Shown in pieces: positions 4,065 through 58,778 of a stretch of 64,000 nucleotides of DNA. The DNA is taken from NCBI GenBank assembly GCA_963835525.1, contig CAWIFM010000007.1:58984-122983 (forward strand). The letters run 5' to 3'. The DNA comes from an uncultured Solirubrobacteraceae bacterium (GTDB taxonomy: Bacteria > Actinomycetota > Thermoleophilia > Solirubrobacterales > Solirubrobacteraceae). The notes beneath the pieces were generated by a model. The model saw only the letters and a program-made list of their open reading frames with translations. It did not search any database and was not told where the DNA came from. Both the position numbers and the translations under genes were made by a program. Within the stretch, counting starts at the first letter, position 1; each line of letters opens with the position of its first letter.

Positions 4065-4982
4065 TCAGGCGGCGGGCCAGTACTTCCCGAGATCCGAGAG
4101 CTTGGTGACGCCGAGGCGCTGCGCGGTGTCGGTCTTCATCACGAAGACGTTTCGGTTCTCGCCCGGCGCGAGCTGAAGCGGCCGGGCATGGACCTGCCGC
4201 CGCAGCGCCTTGCGCAGACGGCGCAGCAGCCGGCTGTCGTCGGCCGGGCGCTTGCCGAGGAAGCTCATCAGCGACCCCGAGTAGGCCGGGTACATCCCGA
4301 TCTCTCCGCGCCGCACCTGCCGGACCGCCTGCCGGCGCAGCCCGCCGACGCTGCGGACCCTGACCCGGTAGCCGCCCGCCCGCAGCGCCTCCGCGTACAG
4401 GTAGGCGAGCGTCTCGTTCTCGGCGAAGTCCTGGAAGCCGACGACGATCCGCGGTCCGCGCCGGCGCGGGGCGCTGCCGCCGAGGCCGTTGGCGTCGATG
4501 AACTCCCCTCCGACGGCCTCGGGCAGGCGCCCGTCGAGGACGTGCTGGTTGAGCTCGCGCAGGGCGAGGGTCGTCAGCACCGCCGACGCCGCATTGAGTC
4601 GGCGCCGGATGTCGCGCGCCCGCCGCCCGTAGCTCCGCAGCACCGAGGAGCGCACCACCGGCACGATGCGGTCCGAGCCCACCATGTCCTTGTCGTCGTC
4701 GAGCGTGAGGATGTCCGGCCGCGACACCTCGGGGTTGGAGCTGAACGCCACGGCGACCTCGCTGATCCCGTCGTCGAGCGCGCGGATGCCCTCGTCGGCG
4801 ACTTCGAGCGGGACGTGGACGCCCGACACGTCGAGCCCGTAGACGCTCGAGAGACCCGGGCCGCAGCCCGGGTTGGTCAGGCAGTCGGCCGGCGCCGCGA
4901 GGCGCACCATCTCCTGCCCCGACGCCGGCGCGGCGAACGCGACGAAGGCGATCAAGCAGGCTGCCGCGCCCCGGTATCGCAT
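4065..4982 (-). CDS. glycine betaine/osmoprotectant-type ABC substrate-binding protein (orphan SBP)
   Basis: 305 aa with signal peptide MRYRGAAACLIAFVAFAAPASG. OpuAC-like segments are present (VVGFQDFAENETLAYLYAEALRAGGY..., GMYPAYSGSL). No permease or ATPase gene is adjacent. Confidence 0.6.
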   Translation of the reverse strand: MRYRGAAACLIAFVAFAAPASGQEMVRLAAPADCLTNPGCGPGLSSVYGLDVSGVHVPLEVADEGIRALDDGISEVAVAFSSNPEVSRPDILTLDDDKDMVGSDRIVPVVRSSVLRSYGRRARDIRRRLNAASAVLTTLALRELNQHVLDGRLPEAVGGEFIDANGLGGSAPRRRGPRIVVGFQDFAENETLAYLYAEALRAGGYRVRVRSVGGLRRQAVRQVRRGEIGMYPAYSGSLMSFLGKRPADDSRLLRRLRKALRRQVHARPLQLAPGENRNVFVMKTDTAQRLGVTKLSDLGKYWPAA

Positions 4983-5041: not shown

Positions 5042-6448
5042 TTGCAGGCTGCCGAGTGGATTGGGAACCTCGACCGGTCGGTGTCCTGGCGACGGCGTCT
5101 CTCTTGGTGCTCGACCGCTGCGGTGGTCATGGTGGTCCTCGTTCCGGGCGCGTTCGCACAGGCACCGCACGACGCGCGCCAAGGTGAGCAGTGGGCGGTC
5201 GCCGAGGGGGTCGTGCTGAACCTGCCCGGCGCCTGGGAGCTCTCGCAGGGCGCCGGCGTCACCGTGGCCGTGATCGACTCCGGCGCCAGGCTCGAGCACC
5301 CGGACCTCGCGCCCAACGTGTGGGTCAACTTCGACGAGGTGCCGGGCAACCGGGTCGACGACGACGCCAACGGCTATGTCGACGACGTCCACGGGGTCGA
5401 CCTGACCACCAGCGCCCGCGGGAGCCAGGACCTGTCCGACGGCAACGGGCACGGCACGCACGTGTCCGGGATCATCGCCGGCGCCGCAAACGGCCGCGGC
5501 GTCGTCGGCGTCGCGTTCCGGGCGCGGCTGATGATCGTCAAGGTGCTCGACGCGCGCGGGGCGGGCACCACGGGGGCGGTCGCCGAGGGCATCCGCTACG
5601 CCGCCGCCAACGGCGCGCGGATCATCAACCTGAGCCTGGGCGGGCCGACGCGCGATCCGCGGCTCGTGGAGGCCGTCAAGGCGGCCGAGGCCGCCAACGT
5701 CCTGCTCGTCTGCTCGGCCGGCAACCTGGGGAACAACGTCGACAACGAGCCGAGCTACCCGGTGGCGCTGGCCGCGGGCAACATCGTCGGCGTCGCGGCC
5801 ACCGAGCCGCAGAACGGCCGCAACCTCGGGTCGTTCTCGAACTTCGGCCGCAACACGATCGGGCTCGCCGCGCCCGGCGTGGACGTGCTTTCGAGCGCCA
5901 ACGACGGCGGCTACGAGCTCAAGAGCGGGACCTCGATGGCGGCGCCGCACGCCGCCGGCGTCGCGGCGCTGATGGCCGCGATGCGGCCCGACCTGTCGGC
6001 CTCCGAGCTGCGCGCGCAGCTGCTCCAGAACGCCGGGCGTGCCTCGCTGCCGGTCAGCGGCGGCTACCTGGATGCGCTCAGCTCGGTCGTCAAGGTCGCG
6101 AGCGCGTCCACGTACCGGCTGGGACAGCCGCCGCTCGTGCGGGTGCTCTCCGCGCAGCGCAAGGGCTCGCAGACCGTCGTGCAGGTGGCGGCGCTCGGCG
6201 ACACGCGGCGGGTGGCGCGATACCGCCTGAGCCTCGACCGGCGCCGCGCGGCCGAGGTGCGCAAGGGCAGCTCGCCGTTCACGGTCCGCCTGCGCGGCCG
6301 TGCGGGCCGCAAGCTGCGCGTCGACGCGCTCGATGCGGCCGGCAAGAAGATCGCCTCGGGCACGCGTGCGGTCCGGGGGGTGCGCAAGGGCAAGCGCGGC
6401 GTCCGCCGCGGCTCGGGCGTCGGCACGGGGCAGGTGACGATCTGGTGA
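5042..6448 (+). CDS. secreted S8 family serine peptidase (subtilisin-like)
   Basis: Catalytic triad motifs are present: VAVIDSG (Asp), HGTHVSGIIAG (His), GTSMAAPHAAGVAAL (Ser). There is an N-terminal hydrophobic signal. The start is TTG at 5042 or a nearby GTG. Confidence 0.9.
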   Translation: MQAAEWIGNLDRSVSWRRRLSWCSTAAVVMVVLVPGAFAQAPHDARQGEQWAVAEGVVLNLPGAWELSQGAGVTVAVIDSGARLEHPDLAPNVWVNFDEVPGNRVDDDANGYVDDVHGVDLTTSARGSQDLSDGNGHGTHVSGIIAGAANGRGVVGVAFRARLMIVKVLDARGAGTTGAVAEGIRYAAANGARIINLSLGGPTRDPRLVEAVKAAEAANVLLVCSAGNLGNNVDNEPSYPVALAAGNIVGVAATEPQNGRNLGSFSNFGRNTIGLAAPGVDVLSSANDGGYELKSGTSMAAPHAAGVAALMAAMRPDLSASELRAQLLQNAGRASLPVSGGYLDALSSVVKVASASTYRLGQPPLVRVLSAQRKGSQTVVQVAALGDTRRVARYRLSLDRRRAAEVRKGSSPFTVRLRGRAGRKLRVDALDAAGKKIASGTRAVRGVRKGKRGVRRGSGVGTGQVTIW

Positions 6449-7223
6449 GGGCGCTGGCGCTCGCCGTGCTGCTCGCGGCGCTCGCGCCGTCCACGGCGAT
6501 GGCGGCGAAGCCGCCGATCAGGATGAGCGGCGCGGTCATCGCCACGGCGCTCACCGCCGACCTGGCCTTCTTCTACCGGCGCGAGGTCTCCTCGCCGCCG
6601 CGCTTCGAGCTGGTCGGCGGGCGCTCGGCGACCGGGATCGCCGACGTCTCGCGCGGGATCTCGGACGTCGGGCTCACCGCCCGCCCGCTGATCGCGGGCG
6701 ACCCGCCCGGGCTCGTGTTCACGCCGATCGCGCGGACCGGCATCTGCCTGGTGACGAACGTCGTGAACCCGGTCCCCGGATTCAGCCGGGCGCAGATCCA
6801 GGACCTCGTCGCCGCCCGCATCACCGCGTGGTCGCAGGTGCCGGGCTCGCCGCTCGCCGATCCGATCGCCGCCGCCGTGACGAGCGTGGGCGGCGGCTCT
6901 CGCACGGCGTTCGAGGCCGCCATGGTCGACCCGGCCACGCCGCAGCTGAACTCGACGCGAACCTTCACCTCGGCGCTGCAGGTGCGCGACTACCTCAAGG
7001 TGACCCCGAACGCGTGGGGGTACGTCGACCTCGCGTTCGCCGGCGACCTGAACGTCGTCCCCTTCGACGGGATCCCGTGCAACCGCGCGACGGTCGCCTC
7101 AGAGACCTACCCGGCCCTCACCGAGCTCGGGTTCGTCACGCGCGGCGCCCCGAAGGGCCGCGTCGCCCGTTTCGTGCGCTGGGTGCGCAGCAGCCGCAAG
7201 GCGCGGCGGGTGATCGCGACCCG

Positions 7224-12267: not shown

Positions 12268-12352
12268 AGGTGTCAAAGGCAAATCGTCCGCGAGGGCGAG
12301 GCGCAAAGCCACGGAGCTCCTCGGATGGGAGCAAGCCGGGTTGCCACCGCCA
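12268..12352 (+). promoter_or_regulatory. candidate c-di-GMP-I (GEMM-I) riboswitch aptamer in the pilA leader
   Basis: GGCAAA (12278-83). GNRA hairpin CGUCC-GCGA-GGGCG (12285-98). AGGCGCAAAGCC (12299-310). Second hairpin GCUCC...GGAGC (12316-32). GGGUUGCC (12338-45), whose UUGCC pairs with GGCAA at 12278-82. The order and sequence match the conserved GEMM-I core as I recall it. Not verified with a covariance model. Confidence 0.65.
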
Positions 12353-44092: not shown

Positions 44093-44815
44093 GTGGCTGG
44101 TTCCGTAAAGACCGAGGGGATCGTCCTCCGCAGCCTCCGCTACGGAGAGGCGGACCGCATCCTGCACCTGTATACCCCGGATCGCGGCAGAGTGGGCGCG
44201 ATCGCCAAGGGCGTGCGCCGCGCGCGCTCGCGCTTCGGGGGCCGGCTCGAGCCCTTCTTCCGGCTCCAGCTGGTGCTCTACCAGGGCCGGGGAGAGCTTC
44301 TGACCGTCACCAGCGCCGAGACGGTGGCCGCCCACCCGCGCCTGCGCGACGACGCCCGCGCGCTCGACGGCGCCGGCCGCGCCTGCGAGGCCGTTGCACG
44401 CGTGTTCGACGACGGCGATCCGCACTCCGGCGTCTACCACCTGCTCGCCAACCAGCTCGCGCTGCTCGACCGCGAGCCCGTCCGCGCCACGCGTGCCAAC
44501 GCGCTCGCCTTCCGCCTCAAGCTGCTGCTGGCCGCCGGCTTCGCGCCGCAGCTCGCCGGGTGCACGTCGTGCGGTGAGGGCGAGCACCTGGTCGGCTTCT
44601 CGGGCGCCGCGGGCGGCGTCGTGTGCGCGGCCTGCGAGGCGAGCTCCTTCCCGCTCGACCAGGAGGCGCACGACTTCCTCGTGGCCGCTCTCGGGCAGCC
44701 GCTGGCCGAGACTCCAGAGGCCTCGCCGCGCGCCCTGCAGCAGGCCGAGCGGGCCATCCTGGAGACGCTGGAGCATCATGCGCACCTGCGGCTCCGTCCC
44801 GTGGGCCGCGGGTAG
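44093..44815 (+). CDS. recO: DNA repair protein RecO
   Basis: TEGIVLRSLRYGEADRILHLYT..GRVGAIAKGVRR (OB fold) and a Cys4 zinc motif CTSCG...CAACE. The GTG at 44093 is the only plausible start. Confidence 0.9.
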   Translation: MAGSVKTEGIVLRSLRYGEADRILHLYTPDRGRVGAIAKGVRRARSRFGGRLEPFFRLQLVLYQGRGELLTVTSAETVAAHPRLRDDARALDGAGRACEAVARVFDDGDPHSGVYHLLANQLALLDREPVRATRANALAFRLKLLLAAGFAPQLAGCTSCGEGEHLVGFSGAAGGVVCAACEASSFPLDQEAHDFLVAALGQPLAETPEASPRALQQAERAILETLEHHAHLRLRPVGRG

Positions 44816-44825
44816 GATCGCGGCC

Positions 44826-47435
44826 ATGGATCAGTGGGTCTACGACTTCGCCGAGGGCTCGAAGGACATGCGCGAGCTGCTCGGCGGCAAGGGCGCCAAC
44901 GTCGCGGAGATGACGCGCGTGCTGGGCGCCGACAAGGTCCCCGCCGGGTTCACGATCACCACCGAGGCGTGCGTCGCCTACATGAAGGCCGGGCAGACGG
45001 AGCCCAAGGGGATGGCCGAGCAGGTCGAGAAGGCGCTCGAGCGGCTCCAGGAGCACGCCGGCAAGCGGCTCGGCGACGACGAGGACCCGCTGCTGGTCTC
45101 GGTCCGCTCCGGCGCCCGCGAGTCGATGCCCGGGATGCTCGACACCGTCCTCAACCTCGGCCTCAACGACACCTCGGTCGAGGGCCTCGCGCAGGCCACC
45201 GACAACGAGCGCTTCGCCTGGGATTCCTACCGGCGCTTCGTGCAGATGTTCGGGAACGTCTCGCACGGCATCCCCGGCGAGAAGTTCGAGGACGCGATCA
45301 AGGAGATCAAGAAGGACCGCGGGGTCGAGGAGGACACCGAGCTCGACGCCGATGCGCTGAAGGAGCTGACTGCGAAGTTCAAGGAGCTCTACGAGTTCCC
45401 GCAGGACCCGAAGGAGCAGCTCGAGCAGGCGATCCGCGCCGTGTTCGACTCCTGGACCGGGGACCGCGCCGTCTCCTACCGGCGCCTGAACCGCATTCCC
45501 GACGAGTGGGGGACGGCGGTCAACGTCCAGCAGATGGTGTTCGGCAACAAGGGCGACACCTCGGGCTCCGGCGTCGCCTTCAGCCGCGACGAGGTCACCG
45601 GCGCGAAGGAGCCGAGCGGCGATTTCTTGCCCAACGCGCAGGGCGAGGACGTGGTCTCGGGCGTCCGGAACACGAAGGACATCGCCGAGATGAAGGAGTG
45701 GCTGCCCGAGGCGCACAAGCAGCTGATGGAGATCCTGCGCACGCTCGAGAAGCACTACAAGGACATGCAGGACACCGAGTTCACGGTCGAGGAGGGGCAG
45801 CTGTTCATGCTCCAGACCCGCAACGCCAAGCGCCCCGCCCAGGCGGCCGTGCGCTTCGCGTGCGACGCCGTGGACGAGCGGCTGCTCAAGAAGGAGGAGG
45901 CGCTCGCGACGATCGACCCCTCCTCGCTCGACGCGCTGCTGCACCCGACCTTCGACCCCAAGGCCGAGTTCGAGGTGCTCGCCACCGGCGTGAACGCGTC
46001 GCCGGGGGCGGCGAAGGGCGAGGTGGTGTTCACGGCGGCCGATGCGGTGGCGGCCGAGCAGGAGGGCCGCGACGTGATCCTCGTGCGCCCCTTCACCGAG
46101 GCCGACGACGTGGCCGGCTTCCACGCCGCCAAGGGGATCCTGACCTCCGAGGGCGGCAAGGCTTCCCATGCCGCGCTCGTGGCGCGGGGGATGGGGCGGC
46201 CGGCGGTGGTCGGCGCGAAGGCGCTCGCGATCAACCTCAAGCAGAGGTGCATCACCGTCGACGGGACGAAGATCTCCGAGGGCGACCGGATCGCCATCGA
46301 CGGCACCAAGGGCTGCGTGACGCTCGAGGACGTGCCGCTCGTGGACCCCGAGGTCAACGAGTACTTCGAGCGCGTGCTCAAGTGGGCCGACGAGTTCCGC
46401 CGGCTCGGCGTGCGGGCCAACGCCGACACGCCGGAGGACGCGAAGAAGGCGCGCGAGCTGGGGGCCGAGGGCATCGGCCTCTGCCGGACCGAGCACATGT
46501 TCATGGCCGAGGACCGCCAGCCCAAGATGCGGGCGATGATCATGGCCGACGACGAGGACGGCCGCCGCGAGGCGCTGGCCGAGCTGCTGCCCTACCAGCA
46601 GGAGGACTTCGAGGGCCTGTTCGAGGCGATGAAGGGCCTGCCGGTGACGATCCGGCTGCTCGACCCGCCGCTGCACGAGTTCCTCAAGAACCTGCCCGAC
46701 CTGCGCGCGCAGGTCGAGCGCGCCCGGATCGAGTGCACCGACGACCTCGAGCAGCTCGAGAAGACGCTGGCGCGGGTCGAGGAGATCCACGAGGAGAACC
46801 CGATGCTGGGCACGCGCGGCTGCCGGCTGGGGATCCTCTATCCCGAGATCTACGAGATGCAGGTCCAGGCGATCATGCGAGCGATCGCGGCCATGGACAC
46901 CAAGCCGCTCCCGGAGATCATGATCCCGCTGGTCGACTACGAGCACGAGCTGGAGATCCTGCGCGCGCTCGTGGTGGGGATCGGCGACGAGCACGACCTC
47001 GAGGTCGGCAAGGACTACATCGTCGGCACGATGATCGAGCTGCCGCGCGCGTGCTTCGTGGCGAACAAGATCGCCGAGCACGCCGACTTCTTCTCGTTCG
47101 GGACCAACGACCTCACGCAGACCGCGCTGGGGTTCTCGCGCGACGACGTCGAGTCCAAGTTCGTGCCCGTCTACATGGAGCGCAAGATCATCGACCGCTC
47201 GCCGTTCGAGACGATCGACAAGCCGGGCGTGGGGTGGCTGGTCCGGCTCGCGGCGTGGGTGGGCCGCGAGGCGCATCCGGGCCTCAAGCTCGGGATCTGC
47301 GGCGAGCACGGCGGCGACCCGGAGTCGATCGACTTCTTCCACATGGCCGGGCTCGACTACGTCTCCTGCTCGCCGTACCGCGTCCCGATCGCCCGCGTGG
47401 CCGCCGCACAGGCGCAAATTGCACATTCTTCGTGA
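44826..47435 (+). CDS. ppdK: pyruvate, phosphate dikinase
   Basis: 869 aa. MDQWVYDFAEG..LLGGKGANVAEM, the phosphohistidine region GGKASHAALVARGMG, and the PEP-utilising C-terminal domain GICGEHGGDP. Confidence 0.95.
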   Translation: MDQWVYDFAEGSKDMRELLGGKGANVAEMTRVLGADKVPAGFTITTEACVAYMKAGQTEPKGMAEQVEKALERLQEHAGKRLGDDEDPLLVSVRSGARESMPGMLDTVLNLGLNDTSVEGLAQATDNERFAWDSYRRFVQMFGNVSHGIPGEKFEDAIKEIKKDRGVEEDTELDADALKELTAKFKELYEFPQDPKEQLEQAIRAVFDSWTGDRAVSYRRLNRIPDEWGTAVNVQQMVFGNKGDTSGSGVAFSRDEVTGAKEPSGDFLPNAQGEDVVSGVRNTKDIAEMKEWLPEAHKQLMEILRTLEKHYKDMQDTEFTVEEGQLFMLQTRNAKRPAQAAVRFACDAVDERLLKKEEALATIDPSSLDALLHPTFDPKAEFEVLATGVNASPGAAKGEVVFTAADAVAAEQEGRDVILVRPFTEADDVAGFHAAKGILTSEGGKASHAALVARGMGRPAVVGAKALAINLKQRCITVDGTKISEGDRIAIDGTKGCVTLEDVPLVDPEVNEYFERVLKWADEFRRLGVRANADTPEDAKKARELGAEGIGLCRTEHMFMAEDRQPKMRAMIMADDEDGRREALAELLPYQQEDFEGLFEAMKGLPVTIRLLDPPLHEFLKNLPDLRAQVERARIECTDDLEQLEKTLARVEEIHEENPMLGTRGCRLGILYPEIYEMQVQAIMRAIAAMDTKPLPEIMIPLVDYEHELEILRALVVGIGDEHDLEVGKDYIVGTMIELPRACFVANKIAEHADFFSFGTNDLTQTALGFSRDDVESKFVPVYMERKIIDRSPFETIDKPGVGWLVRLAAWVGREAHPGLKLGICGEHGGDPESIDFFHMAGLDYVSCSPYRVPIARVAAAQAQIAHSS

Positions 47436-47438
47436 CGG

Positions 47439-48461
47439 TTGACGGCGCGGTCCGTCGCGACGGTCACAATTGAGGGCGTGCTCGTCGCCGACGACTACGC
47501 CGCTCGTATCCAGGCCTGGGAGGAGGCCGTGCTGTCGCCGCTGGCCGCGCGCTCGTACCCGGCCGAGCGGGTGCACGAGGAGCCCGAGTGCGGGCTGCGC
47601 ACCCCGTTCCAGCGCGACCGCGACCGGATCGTGCACTCGAAGGCCTTCCGGCGGCTCAAGCACAAGACGCAGGTGTTCGTGGCGCCGGAGGGCGATCACT
47701 ACCGCACGCGGCTCACGCACACGCTGGAGGCGACGCAGATCTCGCGCACGGTGGCCCGCGCGCTGCGCCTGAACGAGGACCTGACGGAGGCGATCGGGCT
47801 GGGGCACGACGTCGGCCACCCGCCGTTCGGGCACATCGGCGAGGCGGTGCTCGATGCGTGCGGCCGCGAGCGGTTCGGCCGCGGCTTCCGCCACAACGAG
47901 CACTCGCTGCGGGTGGTGGAGGAGCTCAACCTCACCGCGGCGGTCCGGGACGGGATCCTGCGCCACTCGAGCGGCGCGGGCGAGCCTTCGACGCTGGAGG
48001 GCAAGATCGTCCGCCTGGTGGACCGGATCGCGTACATCAACCACGACATCGACGACGCGGTGCGCGCGGGTGTGCTGGCGCCTTCCGCGCTGCCGGCGGA
48101 CGAGATCGCGGTGTTGGGCGACACCGGCTCGGCGCGGATAGACAGGCTGGTGCACGACCTCGTCGAGCACTCCGAGCGGGCCGGCGACATCGTGCAGGGC
48201 GACGACGTCGGGACCGCCATGCTGCGCCTGCGGTCGTTCATGTTCGAGCACGTCTACCTCGGCCCGATCGCGCGCGCCGAGCACGCCAAGATCGAGCGCG
48301 TGCTGCGCGGCCTCTTCGACTGGTACTGCGAGCACCCCGACGAGCTGCCCCCCGGCCCGGACCTGGCGGACCGCGTGATCGACTGGCTCGCGGGGATGAC
48401 CGACCGCTACGCGATCCGCGCCTGGGCGGAGCGCTTCGTGCCGCAGGGCCTCGCGATTTAG
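47439..48461 (+). CDS. dgt: dGTP triphosphohydrolase-like HD-domain protein
   Basis: RTPFQRDRDRIVHSKAFRRLKHKTQVF, RLTHTLE and GLGHDVGHPPFGH. The start is TTG 47439 or the in-frame GTG at 47478. Confidence 0.9.
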   Translation: MTARSVATVTIEGVLVADDYAARIQAWEEAVLSPLAARSYPAERVHEEPECGLRTPFQRDRDRIVHSKAFRRLKHKTQVFVAPEGDHYRTRLTHTLEATQISRTVARALRLNEDLTEAIGLGHDVGHPPFGHIGEAVLDACGRERFGRGFRHNEHSLRVVEELNLTAAVRDGILRHSSGAGEPSTLEGKIVRLVDRIAYINHDIDDAVRAGVLAPSALPADEIAVLGDTGSARIDRLVHDLVEHSERAGDIVQGDDVGTAMLRLRSFMFEHVYLGPIARAEHAKIERVLRGLFDWYCEHPDELPPGPDLADRVIDWLAGMTDRYAIRAWAERFVPQGLAI

Positions 48462-48465
48462 ATGA

Positions 48466-48489
48466 CCGGATACCGATATCGGTCTCCGG
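48466..48489. promoter_or_regulatory. 24-bp imperfect palindrome between dgt and dnaG
   Basis: CCGGATACCGATATCGGTCTCCGG has a perfect 12-bp core ACCGATATCGGT and one mismatch in the outer arms. It lies 5 nt after the dgt stop and 8 nt before the dnaG ATG. Confidence 0.5.
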
Positions 48490-48496
48490 CCATCTG

Positions 48497-50284
48497 ATGC
48501 CCCGATATACCCAGGACTCGCGCGAGCGGGTCCGCGACGCGGTCGACTTCGAGGAGCTGGTGGGCGCGCGGACGGAGCTGCGGCGGTCGGGGGCGCGGCG
48601 GTTGTCGGGCCTGTGCCCGTTCCACGAGGAGCGGACGCCGTCGTTCGGCATCGATCCCGTCGAGAAGCTCTACCACTGCTTCGGCTGCGGGACGGGCGGC
48701 GACGTCTTCTCGTTCGTGATGGAGACCGAGGGCTTGGACTTCGCCGGCGCTCTGGAGTCGCTGGCCGACCGCTACGGCGTCCAGCTCGAGCGCGAGGCCG
48801 AGGATCCGGCCGACGCGGCGCGGCGCGCCGCACGGGACCGGCTGATGGCGCTGCTGGAGCGCACGGCCGCCTACTACGTGCGGCTGCTGTGGGAGTCGCC
48901 GGAGGCGGGCCTCGCTCGCACGTACCTCGCGGAGCGAGGATTGGAGGAGGCGGCGCTGCGCGAGTACCGGGTCGGGTACTCGCCGGGCTCGTACGACCGG
49001 GTGGTCAGCGCCTCGGCGGCGGCGGGCTACACGCGCGAGGAGCTGCTCTCGTGCGGTCTCGCGCAGGAGCGGCGCGACGGCCGCGGGCTGATCGACCGCT
49101 TCCGCGGCCGGATCATGTTCCCGCTGTGCGACGAGCGCGGGCGGGTGCTCGGCTTCGGCGCGCGGGCGCTGCGGCCCGACGACAAGCCGAAGTACCTGAA
49201 CTCCTCCGACAACCTCGTCTTCCACAAGAACGAGGTGCTCTACGGGCTCGACCTCGCCCGCGCCCCCGCGGCGCGGGCCGGGCGGGTGGTGCTGGTCGAG
49301 GGCTACACCGATGCCGTCGCGCTGCGCCAGGCCGGCGTGGCCGAGGTGGTCGGCTCGATGGGCACGGCGCTGACCGAGCGCCAGGTGTCGGCTCTCGCGA
49401 GGGTGGCCCCGACCGCCCTGTTCTGCCAGGACCCCGACGCCGCCGGCCAGGAGGCGGTCTCGCGCAGCGTCACGGCGCTGCGCGATCTGAATCGCGTGCG
49501 AACGGGACGCGGCGTCGAGTTCCGCATCGTGCGGCTGCCGCCGGGCTCCGATCCCGCCGACGTCGTCCAGCGCGACGGGGCCGACGCCATGCGCGAGCTG
49601 CTCGAGCACGCGGTCCCGATCGCGCGCTTCGAGGTCGAGCGCGCGCTGGAGCGCGGCGACACCCGCAGCGCGGAGGGCCGCGACCACGTGCTCGAGCAGG
49701 CCGCGGCCGCGATCCGGCCACTGCCCCCGAGCGTCCTGCGCGAGGAGCTCGTCCAGCTCGTCGCCGGCCGGCTGGGGCTGACCGAGAGCCTCGTGGCGAG
49801 CGCGCTGGCCGCCGCCGCACCCTTGCGCGTCACGCGCCCCGCGCGCGAGGATCGCCCCGCCGGGCCGAACGGCGCGCGCGCAGCGCTCGACCGCCGCGAG
49901 CAGAGCGAGCGAGCCTTCCTCGCCTACTGCCTCGCGCTGCCCGAGGAGGGCGAGGCGCGACTTGCGGCGGCCGACCTCGACGAGCTGTTCTCCGCGCCCG
50001 CCACCCGCCGCGCCGCGGAGTACCTGCGCGGCCGCCTGCGCTCCCCTGCGGGCGAGCTCCCGGCCGGCGACGAGCCGCTGGCGCGGCTGGTCGCCGAGCT
50101 CGTCATCCGCGCCGGAGAGCTCGAGGCCACGCCCGCCAAGCTCGAGCTCGAGGCGCTCCAGCTCGACCTCCACAACCTCGACCGCCGCATCTCCACCGCC
50201 CGCACCGACGGCCACGAGCGCATCCACGACCTCGCCGCCGAGCGCCAGCAGGTCCTCGACGCGATCCGCCACCGCCTGAGCTAG
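48497..50284 (+). CDS. dnaG: DNA primase
   Basis: Zinc-binding CPFHEERTPSF...YHCFGCGTGGD, the RNA polymerase core, and the TOPRIM segment VLVEGYTDAVAL. ATG at 48497. Confidence 0.95.
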   Translation: MPRYTQDSRERVRDAVDFEELVGARTELRRSGARRLSGLCPFHEERTPSFGIDPVEKLYHCFGCGTGGDVFSFVMETEGLDFAGALESLADRYGVQLEREAEDPADAARRAARDRLMALLERTAAYYVRLLWESPEAGLARTYLAERGLEEAALREYRVGYSPGSYDRVVSASAAAGYTREELLSCGLAQERRDGRGLIDRFRGRIMFPLCDERGRVLGFGARALRPDDKPKYLNSSDNLVFHKNEVLYGLDLARAPAARAGRVVLVEGYTDAVALRQAGVAEVVGSMGTALTERQVSALARVAPTALFCQDPDAAGQEAVSRSVTALRDLNRVRTGRGVEFRIVRLPPGSDPADVVQRDGADAMRELLEHAVPIARFEVERALERGDTRSAEGRDHVLEQAAAAIRPLPPSVLREELVQLVAGRLGLTESLVASALAAAAPLRVTRPAREDRPAGPNGARAALDRREQSERAFLAYCLALPEEGEARLAAADLDELFSAPATRRAAEYLRGRLRSPAGELPAGDEPLARLVAELVIRAGELEATPAKLELEALQLDLHNLDRRISTARTDGHERIHDLAAERQQVLDAIRHRLS

Positions 50285-50525
50285 CTGTAGTTCCTGAGCA
50301 GGTTGTTCCTCCGGCTGCCCAAGCCCGACGGGCGAACGTCAACTGCGGCTGGGGAGGGGAGCTGGGAGGCCGGCGAGGGCGGTTTCCTCGAAGCGTCCTG
50401 CCCTGCGGTCGTCTGACGACCCTTAGCCAGGACGCTACGCCAAGACCGCCGCGCGGCCGGCTCCCCAGCCTCCCCACCCAGCCGCAGTTCGCCGATTGAA
50501 CAACGTGCTCGGTACTTACAGCTAG
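50281..50525. mobile_element. MITE-like 237-nt inverted-repeat element flanked by CTAG/CTAG
   Basis: Terminal inverted repeats CTGTAGTTCCTGAGCAGGTTGTTC (50285-308) and GAACAACGTGCTCGGTACTTACAG (50498-521) match at 19 of 24 positions. The interior is also largely self-complementary (e.g. AACTGCGGCTGGGG / CCCCACCCAGCCGCAGTT) and centres on GGTCGTC-T-GACGACC at 50407-21. It is flanked by direct CTAG (50281-84 and 50522-25). There is no coding potential. Copy number is unknown. Confidence 0.45.
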
Positions 50526-50724
50526 CGGACGCCCGGCAAGCCGGTGTGCGGGTCCTTCGGGCCTACGACCTCGACGATCACGTCGCCGTAGATCGTCCAG
50601 CCCGGAGGGTGCGGAGCCGGCGGGCGCGAGGTGGAGCGGTTCATGAGCGGTACGACCCACAACCCGCCGCAGAGGTTGGGAATTTGCAGCGACTCCGTCC
50701 GGCACACGAACTAGTGTTCGGGTC

Positions 50725-51455
50725 ATGGAGTCACCCTGGCTGGCATCGCAACTGGAGGCGGGCCGCTCGATCGAGTCGATCGCCCGCGATACCGGCAAGA
50801 GCGTCTCGACGGTCGCGTACTGGGTCAACAAGCACGGCCTGTCGTCCCAGCACGCATCGAAGCACGCGGCGCGCGGCGGGATCGACCGTGTCGAGCTCGA
50901 GGCGATGGTCGGACTCGGGATGCCGATCCGCGCGATGGCCGACCAACTCGGCGTCGGCTACACCACCGTGCGGCACTGGCTGAAGCACCACGGTCTCACC
51001 ACGCCACGCGCGCGTCGACTCGCCGAGACGGCGGAGGCGCGGGCGACCGGCGCCGACACGGCGAGCGGCTCCTGTCCGCGGCACGGACTCGTGACGTTCG
51101 TCCGTCGCGGCCCCGACGGGTTTCGCTGTCAGCGCTGCCGGACCGAAGCCGTGGACCGGCGGCGGCGCAAGATCAAGCGCATCCTGGTCGCCGAGGCGGG
51201 CGGCGCTTGCGTCGAGTGCGGCTACTCACGGACGCTGGCTGCGCTGCACTTCCACCACCTCGATCCGGCGCAGAAGTCCTTCGGTCTCGGCGAGCGCGGC
51301 GTGACGCTCTCCTTGGAGGCCGCCCGAGCCGAGGCCGCCAAGTGCGTGCTGCTCTGCGCCACGTGTCACGCCGAGGTCGAACTGGGCGTCAAGCGGCTAC
51401 CCTGTCGGCCGATGACCCGTGGAGATGCCGCGGTGGTCCGCCGGTCATCGTGCCT

Positions 51456-51465
<10 letters not shown>
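50725..51465 (+). CDS. HNH endonuclease-domain protein with two tandem HTH-like repeats
   Basis: Repeats SIESIARDTGKSVSTVAYWVNKHGLSS and PIRAMADQLGVGYTTVRHWLKHHGLTT. Cys clusters CPRHG...CQRC and CVECG. HNH core LHFHHLDP...LLCATCHAEVE. The last 10 nt overlap tRNA-Asn. Confidence 0.75.
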
Positions 51466-51528
<63 letters not shown>

Positions 51529-51534
51529 CTTGAG

Positions 51535-57641: not shown

Positions 57642-58778
57642 ATGCGTACGCCCTTCGCCGTCATGGCGGTGCTGCTCGTCGCGCTCCTGGCCATCGGATT
57701 CCTCACCGAGGACGACGACGGCGAGCCGGCCGCCGCGCCCGCCGCCGCGCCGGTCGACGTCATCGCCAAGCGGGTCGAGACGCTGCGCCGGCTGCGCTTC
57801 GACGAGCTGCCGGAGCCGGTCGAGGTGACCGCCGAGCAGGCGCGCAGCGAAGGGCTGGAGAGCCTCGACCGCGACTATCCGGCGGAGCGCCTGCGCGACG
57901 ACGAGACGGTGTACGAGCTGCTCGGGCTGATCGAGCCCGGCGCCGACCTGCGCGAGCTGACCGGCAACCTGTTCGGCGAGGGGGTGGCCGGCTACTACGA
58001 CCCGCGCGACGGACGGCTGCGCGTCGTGGAGGGCTCGGGCACCGGCACGCGCGTGCTGGAGGAGATGATCCTCGCCCACGAGCTCACCCACGCGCTGGAG
58101 GATCAGCGCTTCGGGCTGGAGTCCGAGCCGGCCACCGACGACCGCACGCTCGCGCGCTCGGCGCTCTACGAGGGGAGCGCCACCGCGCTCATGTACGCCT
58201 ACGTGGGCGAGCACTTCAGCGCCGAGGAGACGCTCGGCGGCCTGCTCTCCTCGGCCTTCGAGGACACCGGCGACCTGCCGCCCTTCATCCAGGCCCAGGT
58301 GCTGTTCGCCTACGTCGGCGGCGAGGCGTTCGTGCGCGAGCTGCTCCAGCGCGGCGGCTGGGGGCTGGTCGATACCGCCTTCGAGGTGCGCAAGCCCTCG
58401 TCGACCGAGCAGATCCTGCACCCCGACGCCTACCTCGAGGCCGACGAGCCCAAGCCGGTCCGGATCCGCGCCGCGCTCCCGGGCTGGAAGCGCGCGCACG
58501 CCGGCACCTGGGGCGAGCTGCAGACGCGCGAGCTGCTGGGCGGATCGAGCCGCGAGGCGGCCGGGTGGGGCGGCGATCGCTACGAGCTGTGGCGGCGCGG
58601 CGACGACGCCGCCCTGATCATGCGCTGGCGCTGGGACACGCCGCGCGACGAGGCCGAGTTCGAGTCCCGGCTGCGGGACGTGGTGGGCGACCGCGGCGTC
58701 GTGGTGCGCCGCGACGGCACGGTGACGCTGGCGGTCGCCCCCGACCGCGACCTGGCCGAGCGGCTGGCGGGCTCTTGA
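57642..58778 (+). CDS. membrane-anchored HExxH protein (putative zinc metalloprotease-like)
   Basis: N-terminal TM FAVMAVLLVALLAIGFL. AHELTHALEDQ motif and a downstream EGSATALM. No precise family recognised. Confidence 0.55.
   Translation: MRTPFAVMAVLLVALLAIGFLTEDDDGEPAAAPAAAPVDVIAKRVETLRRLRFDELPEPVEVTAEQARSEGLESLDRDYPAERLRDDETVYELLGLIEPGADLRELTGNLFGEGVAGYYDPRDGRLRVVEGSGTGTRVLEEMILAHELTHALEDQRFGLESEPATDDRTLARSALYEGSATALMYAYVGEHFSAEETLGGLLSSAFEDTGDLPPFIQAQVLFAYVGGEAFVRELLQRGGWGLVDTAFEVRKPSSTEQILHPDAYLEADEPKPVRIRAALPGWKRAHAGTWGELQTRELLGGSSREAAGWGGDRYELWRRGDDAALIMRWRWDTPRDEAEFESRLRDVVGDRGVVVRRDGTVTLAVAPDRDLAERLAGS

Follow-up and report, generated by a model that had tools for sequence, protein, structure and literature searches.

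The 64,000-nucleotide stretch analysed here (hereafter, the window) belongs to contig CAWIFM010000007.1 of an uncultured Solirubrobacteraceae bacterium and carries, immediately after the DNA primase gene dnaG, a non-coding segment that folds into a long hairpin. We conclude, with high confidence, that this hairpin is a non-autonomous MITE (a miniature transposable element with inverted repeats) derived from the IS481 family of insertion sequences (IS), which inserted at a GCTAGC where the stop codons of two convergent genes overlapped. The element occupies positions 50286–50520 (plus strand) and is a near-perfect palindrome of 235 bp, of the form TGTAG...TTACA, that we class as MITE subfamily A. 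Its identification is based on its hairpin folds, on homologous copies elsewhere, and on the empty orthologous sites of relatives. All the hallmarks of a MITE and of an IS481-family derivative that could be tested were found. The initial annotation of this locus, made from the sequence alone, had described CTAG flanks, terminal inverted repeats, a self-complementary interior, and a TAG stop on either side, all of which are present in the sequence. Its proposal of a non-autonomous, MITE-type element is borne out by the lack of a transposase, the ends shared with an IS, the duplications, and the dispersed homologous copies described below, and only its choice of parent family, target duplication, and exact length must be revised.

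The element is bordered by two copies of the hexamer GCTAGC, at 50280–50285 and 50521–50526, which we take to be the left and right copies of a target-site duplication of the type NCTAGN: the same hexamer is found on both flanks and only one copy in the empty sites of contigs L121 and L122. Each flank has one CTAG (50281–50284 and 50522–50525). Since the direct repeat is the 6-bp GCTAGC, the element proper measures 235 bp and not the 237 initially annotated between its CTAG flanks, which themselves stand. The terminal arms (50280–50315 and 50491–50526) are 78% complementary in an inverted-repeat search, and the core 23-nt terminal repeats (50286–50308 versus 50498–50520) match at 18 of 23 positions. 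The two ends are of distinct types, left (TGTAGTTCCTGA) and right (TGTAAGTACCGA). The left terminal inverted repeat (IRL, TGTAGTTCCTGAGCAGGTTGTTC, 50286–50308, plus strand) adjoins dnaG; where full-length IS481-family copies begin on the left, 28–29 of the first 30 bases are shared with it, and this likeness extends to approximately position 50315. The right one (IRR, TGTAAGTACCGAGCACGTTGTTC, 50498–50520, minus strand) is on the far side and matches the transposase-distal ends of the same full-length copies. The palindromic interior (50341–50489) is unrelated to that of the full-length IS and is conserved among the copies of subfamily A; its inner arms (50341–50374 and 50456–50489) are 82% complementary and the innermost ones (50378–50413 and 50415–50450) are 72% complementary.

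Either strand of the 235 bp folds into a single long interrupted hairpin. With RNA parameters, the folding energies are −158.9 kcal/mol for the plus strand and −161.5 kcal/mol for the minus strand (z = −11.3 and −10.1, respectively), and none of 200 shuffled sequences was equally stable. With DNA parameters, the energy is −81.4 kcal/mol (z = −8.0). The window has a G+C content of 72.5%.

The history of the insertion can be read in the relatives. Proteins 81%–95% identical to this DnaG are abundant, the named ones being from Solirubrobacteraceae, and through them we obtained nine orthologous contigs, to which L123 was added from a metagenome scan. The element is absent from eight of these contigs, which show clean junctions and correspond to six distinct sequences (L118–L120 are near-identical). 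The empty site of L121 and L122 reads as a single GCTAGC (...CTGAGCTAGCGG..., with the junction ...CGCCTGAGCTAG / CGGTCGC...), and when the element and one of the hexamers are taken out of the window, what remains is the junction of the relatives (...CTGAGCTAGCGGACGCCCGGC...). This is the site that the initial annotation had predicted: one palindromic CTAG in which the stops of two convergent genes overlap. The corresponding hexamer is GCTAGG in L114 and GTTAGC in L118–L120 and L115; in L116, a deletion removes the small convergent open reading frame (ORF) at the junction. In L114, L118–L120, and L122, dnaG and the small minus-strand gene overlap there by exactly four bases.

Two contigs are occupied. 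L123 is 96.2% identical to positions 50179–51528 of the window, and the element occupies the same site there, between two GCTAGC. L117 also has it at this site, with GCTAAA as left flank, and the stop codon of dnaG is therefore now TAA in this contig. Compared with the window, L123 shows 91.5% identity over the element and 95.6%–100% over its flanks; this faster divergence of the element fits what one would expect of non-coding DNA under little constraint. The copies of the window and L117 are 79% alike, and each is approximately 87% like the copies of the metagenome-assembled genome (MAG) CAWDCT01 (L063). The identities between the dnaG genes are star-like (88%–93%) and are compatible both with one shared insertion and with two, one in the window and L123, the other in L117.

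We then scanned a collection of species-representative genomes with the pattern common to both ends of the element, GCTGTANNTNCNGAGCANGTTGTTC. This gave 113 loci, of which approximately 96 are genuine and come from Solirubrobacterales and related MAGs (Solirubrobacteraceae, Conexibacter, Baekduia, Patulibacter, Thermoleophilaceae, and unclassified actinobacterial MAGs). With relaxed criteria for the two ends, 48 pairs were identified in these loci, most with a spacing of 1,029–1,075 bp, and a transposase is present in 51 loci of the collection. An IS of approximately 1.05 kb with the termini of the window element (TGTAGTTCCTGAGCA.GTTGTTC / TGTAAGT.CCGAGCA.GTTGTTC) occurs across many genomes of Solirubrobacterales. 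Its sole long ORF, exemplified by positions 4172–5182 of L079, encodes a protein of 336 amino acids that matches the NCBIfam model of IS481-family transposases (NF033577) with 299 bits, for a cutoff of 224, and the Pfam domains rve, rve_3, LZ_Tnp_IS481, and HTH_28. With the IS630 model, the same protein reaches 49 bits, short of the cutoff of 100, and at the thresholds used no IS5-type model appeared among the matches. The IS5 family favoured initially is therefore not the parent: the transposase of the autonomous elements that have these ends is of the IS481 family (rve-type DDE). These transposases share at most approximately 50% protein identity with the annotated IS481-family transposases found on plasmids, and their elements represent an unnamed IS481-family lineage of uncultured Solirubrobacterales.

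The way in which these transposases end links them to the element of the window. In full-length copies, the protein ends in ...ITRLNNLLGTYS*, its last codons being encoded by the terminal repeat and its stop codon by the flanking CTAG; in L079, the end of the ORF (4172–4174) falls inside the hexamer at 4171–4176. The right end of the window element (50487–50525, plus strand) retains a remnant of the 12 final codons of the transposase (VRRLNNVLGTYS) and the TAG stop: residues 325–336 of the L079 protein align to 50487–50522 in tblastn with 75% identity, and the TAG (50523–50525) is within the right duplication. These 12 codons are all that tblastn with the partner transposase finds in the element. 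The likeness to the full-length IS is limited to approximately 30 bp per end, the ORFs across the element have no match in Pfam or NCBIfam, and blastn with the element against the plasmid collection returned no match.

Some of the matches to the terminal-repeat pattern were discarded. Fourteen matches in Streptomyces (L001, L002, L006, L009, L016, and nine others) are chance occurrences of the 25-nt pattern in one conserved coding region, unrelated to IS, where neither a CTA before the match nor a transposase is found; those in L003, L029, and L087 are likewise due to chance, having no flanking CTA and no transposase. The Streptomyces cases show that the results of such patterns require a check of the context. 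Many of the matches lie at contig ends, as a repeated sequence would, and these repeats therefore probably break short-read assemblies. Longer versions of the IS (2.5–2.6 kb) were observed in L042 (3990–6517), L094 (1638–4277), and L024 (5041–7672). The first two have perfect hexamer duplications and that of L024 is imperfect (TCTAGA/GCTAGA). In L042, an IS110-family element (NF033542, 233 bits) interrupts the IS481-family copy.

The flanks of the other copies revealed the length of the target-site duplication. Among the 48 pairs of ends, 27 have identical 6-bp flanks, and the outer bases of the hexamer vary among copies and match within each copy: CCTAGC on both sides in four copies, TCTAGC in two, GCTAGG in two, and GCTAGT in one. 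As bases 1 and 6 of the hexamer agree between flanks and differ among copies, a 6-bp duplication is required, and the 4-bp CTAG duplication initially proposed does not hold. The sequences thus identify a 6-bp NCTAGN duplication, a hallmark of the IS481 family.

This target has particular consequences in G+C-rich DNA. The window contains 18 CTAG, where base composition predicts 159 and a Markov estimate 49, and approximately ten of the 18 provide the stop codon of a coding-like ORF. Hence, CTAG is approximately ninefold under-represented in this genome of 72.5% G+C, and most of the remaining ones are a C followed by a TAG stop. Across the family, a coding-like ORF takes its stop codon from 38 of the 91 CTAG flanks, and six insertion sites, including that of the window, lie between convergent ORFs. 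The position of the element at the stop codon of dnaG is thus accounted for by the target preference of the IS481 family.

A profile search of all the sequences we fetched identified copies of subfamily A (200–277 bp) in 14 loci. The dnaG site accounts for three (window, L123, and L117), the MAG CAWDCT01 for five, each on a different contig, the MAG CAWETE01 for three, and metagenome contigs for the other three. Four of the five copies of CAWDCT01 are 91%–96% alike, which suggests recent spread. The 175-bp interior of the window element is 72%–94% similar to those of the 13 other short copies. The flanks differ among the short copies, so they are not all orthologous insertions at one locus, and several have their own perfect duplications (e.g., GCTAGC in L062). 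A second subfamily of approximately 268 bp (L088, L089, L106, L107, and L112) has the same ends and a different, also palindromic, interior; both subfamilies are therefore MITEs of the same IS lineage. A metagenome scan with an internal motif of subfamily A returned only four contigs, too few for a large-scale estimate of copy number. In L101 (1831–3267), a MITE of subfamily A was found split at an internal CCTAGG by an insertion of approximately 1.2 kb, with the hexamer repeated on both sides. This insertion encodes a different IS481-like transposase, which scores 194 bits with NF033577 (cutoff 224) and is 31% identical to the L079 protein.

These observations lead us to propose the following scenario. 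The MITE kept approximately 30 bp of each end of the IS, with the last 12 transposase codons included in the right end, and lost the transposase gene. A full-length partner would supply the rve-type DDE transposase in trans, which would bind both ends and integrate the element into the GCTAGC hexamer. Before insertion, this hexamer provided the TAG of dnaG on one strand and that of the small ORF on the other, the two overlapping within a single CTAG. Staggered cutting followed by repair would then duplicate GCTAGC. Thanks to this duplication, neither gene loses its stop codon and neither protein is altered. The insertion was probably near-neutral.

The initial annotation had left room for another origin, in which the hairpin would be native to the dnaG locus, as a large structured RNA or a transcription terminator. 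The stability of the fold (z about −11) is what one would expect of such an RNA, every homologous copy retains the pairing (97.7% of cells paired), and both members of five pairs have changed, more than in shuffles and slid controls. However, the clean empty sites and the copies dispersed at unrelated loci of other genomes, every one of them within a 6-bp duplication of its own, refute a native RNA as the origin of the element, and we consider this explanation extremely unlikely. The suggested comparison with Rfam gave no match, neither for the region at E ≤ 1 nor over the element when the whole window was searched at gathering thresholds, and between 50000 and 51000 there is no T-tract or terminator consensus on either strand. 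A consensus scan around the element found no sigma-70 promoter. An RNAalifold analysis at first seemed to indicate strand-specific selection on an RNA, since one-sided changes produced G-U pairs and no A-C ones; this idea was rejected, and we attribute the G-U excess to having folded only the plus strand. When both strands of 12 copies were folded, neither the energy nor the number of G-U pairs differed consistently: the two strands fold equally well across copies, with no G-U versus A-C asymmetry. The faster evolution of the element than of its flanks in the comparison with L123 also argues against a native RNA. The hairpin is instead a DNA-level property of the MITE family, common to all copies, and not a locus-specific RNA. 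We give next to no credence either to a MITE of the IS5 family, or of IS630, with a duplication of 4 bp (CTAG) or 2 bp (TA). IS5-group elements favour YTAR, and IS630 targets CTAG and duplicates TA, so the CTAG on both flanks would be in line with this explanation. It is contradicted by the transposase models (above the cutoff for IS481, below it for IS630, and none reported for IS5 at the thresholds used) and by the co-variation of the outer bases of the hexamer.

A further explanation, very unlikely in our view, is that the hairpin is a one-off remnant of a full-length IS481-family copy that suffered an internal deletion and decayed in place. The window does contain one copy, and its ends are those of the full-length IS. 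Yet the 175-bp interior is not IS sequence and is homologous to those of the 13 other short copies, found at the dnaG site (L123 and L117), at further loci of two MAGs, and on three contigs from metagenomes; several of these copies have their own perfect duplications. Homologous interiors at differing loci, with independent duplications, imply that the short form itself transposed. Finally, the element could be a MITE by origin that was co-opted here: in the transcripts of dnaG and of the small ORF, its long hairpin would terminate transcription in both directions, act on RNA stability, or insulate the convergent genes from each other. This would be consistent with its position exactly between two convergent stop codons, with its retention in two diverged lineages (L123 and L117), and with the compensatory changes that keep the stem intact. 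We regard it as unlikely, even if less so than the preceding explanations, because most relatives lack the element, it has no U-tract, it diverges more quickly than the sequences on either side, neither strand is favoured in the pairing, and the compensatory changes are few and common to related copies.

Several observations weigh against an IS481-derived MITE with a 6-bp duplication. The window has a single copy of the element and no partner transposase in its 64 kb. The three MITE-bearing MAGs have no full-length partner among the fetched loci, a count to be read knowing that an exact-end pattern misses diverged ends. GCTAGC is palindromic, and the window copy alone would be compatible with a 4-bp duplication and one extra base in each repeat; the call of 6 bp depends on the other copies. 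The search pattern fixed a GC beside one end, so that GCTAGC is over-represented among the targets. Mobilisation in trans is inferred from the shared ends and the duplications.

The derivation from IS481 places the element among well-described systems. We compared it with IS481 of Bordetella pertussis, ISLxc2 and ISLxx4 of Leifsonia xyli, and ISRe46/TnRErm46 of Rhodococcus equi. Members of this family duplicate a 6-bp NCTAGN and their transposase stop lies in the repeat; in R. equi, the TAG of the repeat also serves as the stop codon of adjacent parB genes (PMC6794481, PMC2516522, PMC3053399). As in these elements, the ends of the window element begin with TGT (compare the ISLxc2 repeat, TGTGTTTCTCAGGGACGTTGGT), the 6-bp NCTAGN repeat is found at the window element and at its full-length partners, and the partners take their transposase stop from the TAG of the flanking repeat. 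As in the R. equi element, the repeat provides the stop of a host gene, here dnaG. Unlike the IS481-family IS, the window element has no transposase beyond the last 12 codons, measures 235 bp instead of approximately 1.05 kb, and has an unrelated palindromic interior. The Correia elements of Neisseria and the RUP of Streptococcus pneumoniae are bacterial MITEs derived from other IS families and resemble the window element: they are short, non-coding, dispersed, and strongly hairpin-prone, share their ends with an autonomous IS, are flanked by a target-site duplication, and are often at gene ends. MiniMdi3 of Methylobacterium (PMC2680597) resembles the window element in all these aspects: it is short and non-coding, has the ends of an autonomous IS and a target-site duplication, is dispersed, is strongly prone to form a hairpin, and often lies at gene ends. 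The window element differs from these three in its parent family, IS481, and in its 6-bp NCTAGN duplication.

These results annotate a puzzling 235-bp hairpin and define two MITE subfamilies and an unnamed IS481-family IS in uncultured soil Solirubrobacterales. They provide a clean natural example of how a preference for NCTAGN, together with strong CTAG avoidance, directs a transposon towards stop codons; there, the duplicated hexamer restores the stop and neither adjacent gene is damaged. Their conceptual value is small, as the effect on the stop codon of a host gene was already described for the R. equi element; what is new is its confirmation in another lineage and for a non-autonomous derivative, not the principle. 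Full-text literature searches found no paper on IS481-derived MITEs, with ISfinder and the subscription literature outside our reach. One might speculate that these MITEs are an undescribed class that systematically targets C-TAG stops in high-G+C Thermoleophilia, those common to two convergent genes among them, with hairpins retained as bidirectional terminators or insulators and a domesticated copy at dnaG. We find this improbable; if it were true, hairpins kept paired by compensatory change would uncouple the 3′ ends of two convergent genes.

The genes on both sides of the MITE were also analysed. The dnaG gene (48497–50284, plus strand) encodes a primase of 595 amino acids with the Pfam domains Zn_ribbon_DnaG, DNAG_N, Toprim_2/4, and DnaB_bind, and proteins 95% identical to it are named DNA primase. 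Its TAG stop (50282–50284) is within the left CTAG and duplication. The small convergent ORF (50522–50644, minus strand), whose TAG stop is within the right CTAG and duplication, encodes 40 amino acids from an ATG, or 61 from a GTG at 50707, and has a G+C content of 0.90 at third codon positions. It has no match in Pfam or NCBIfam. Its core, SRPPAPHPPGWTIYGDVIVEV, is conserved in the relatives compared (L123, L114, L118, L121, and L122), and its orthologues are called as genes in L114, L117, L118–L120, and L122. The calls in L114 and L118 are of 55–63 amino acids and start with a hydrophobic, signal-like segment; in the window and L123, this segment was lost in frame, leaving 40 amino acids. 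Beyond the small ORF, a gene kept beside dnaG in relatives (50725–51465, plus strand) encodes a protein of 246 amino acids with two N-terminal helix-turn-helix motifs and a Cys/His-rich C-terminus that looks HNH-like by eye; its frame shares 10 nt with a tRNA-Asn gene (51456–51529). An open frame of 1,438 codons (44517–48833, minus strand) runs antisense to a dgt-like gene and to dnaG; its most likely interpretation is as a shadow ORF, a type common at 72.5% G+C. In L116, a second, partial dnaG (5314–6551, with parts of DNAG_N and DnaB_bind), 88.7% identical to the dnaG of the window, lies approximately 1 kb downstream of the intact gene.

Two observations concern more distant parts of the window. 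ARAGORN calls a 100-nt tRNA-Ala(agc) at 58311–58410 (plus strand), with the anticodon at position 38, which the Rfam tRNA model does not find at its gathering threshold; either the call is spurious or the gene has been disrupted, in all probability. A c-di-GMP-I riboswitch aptamer (Rfam RF01051) was identified at 12268–12348 (plus strand), with 61 bits for a gathering score of 35.

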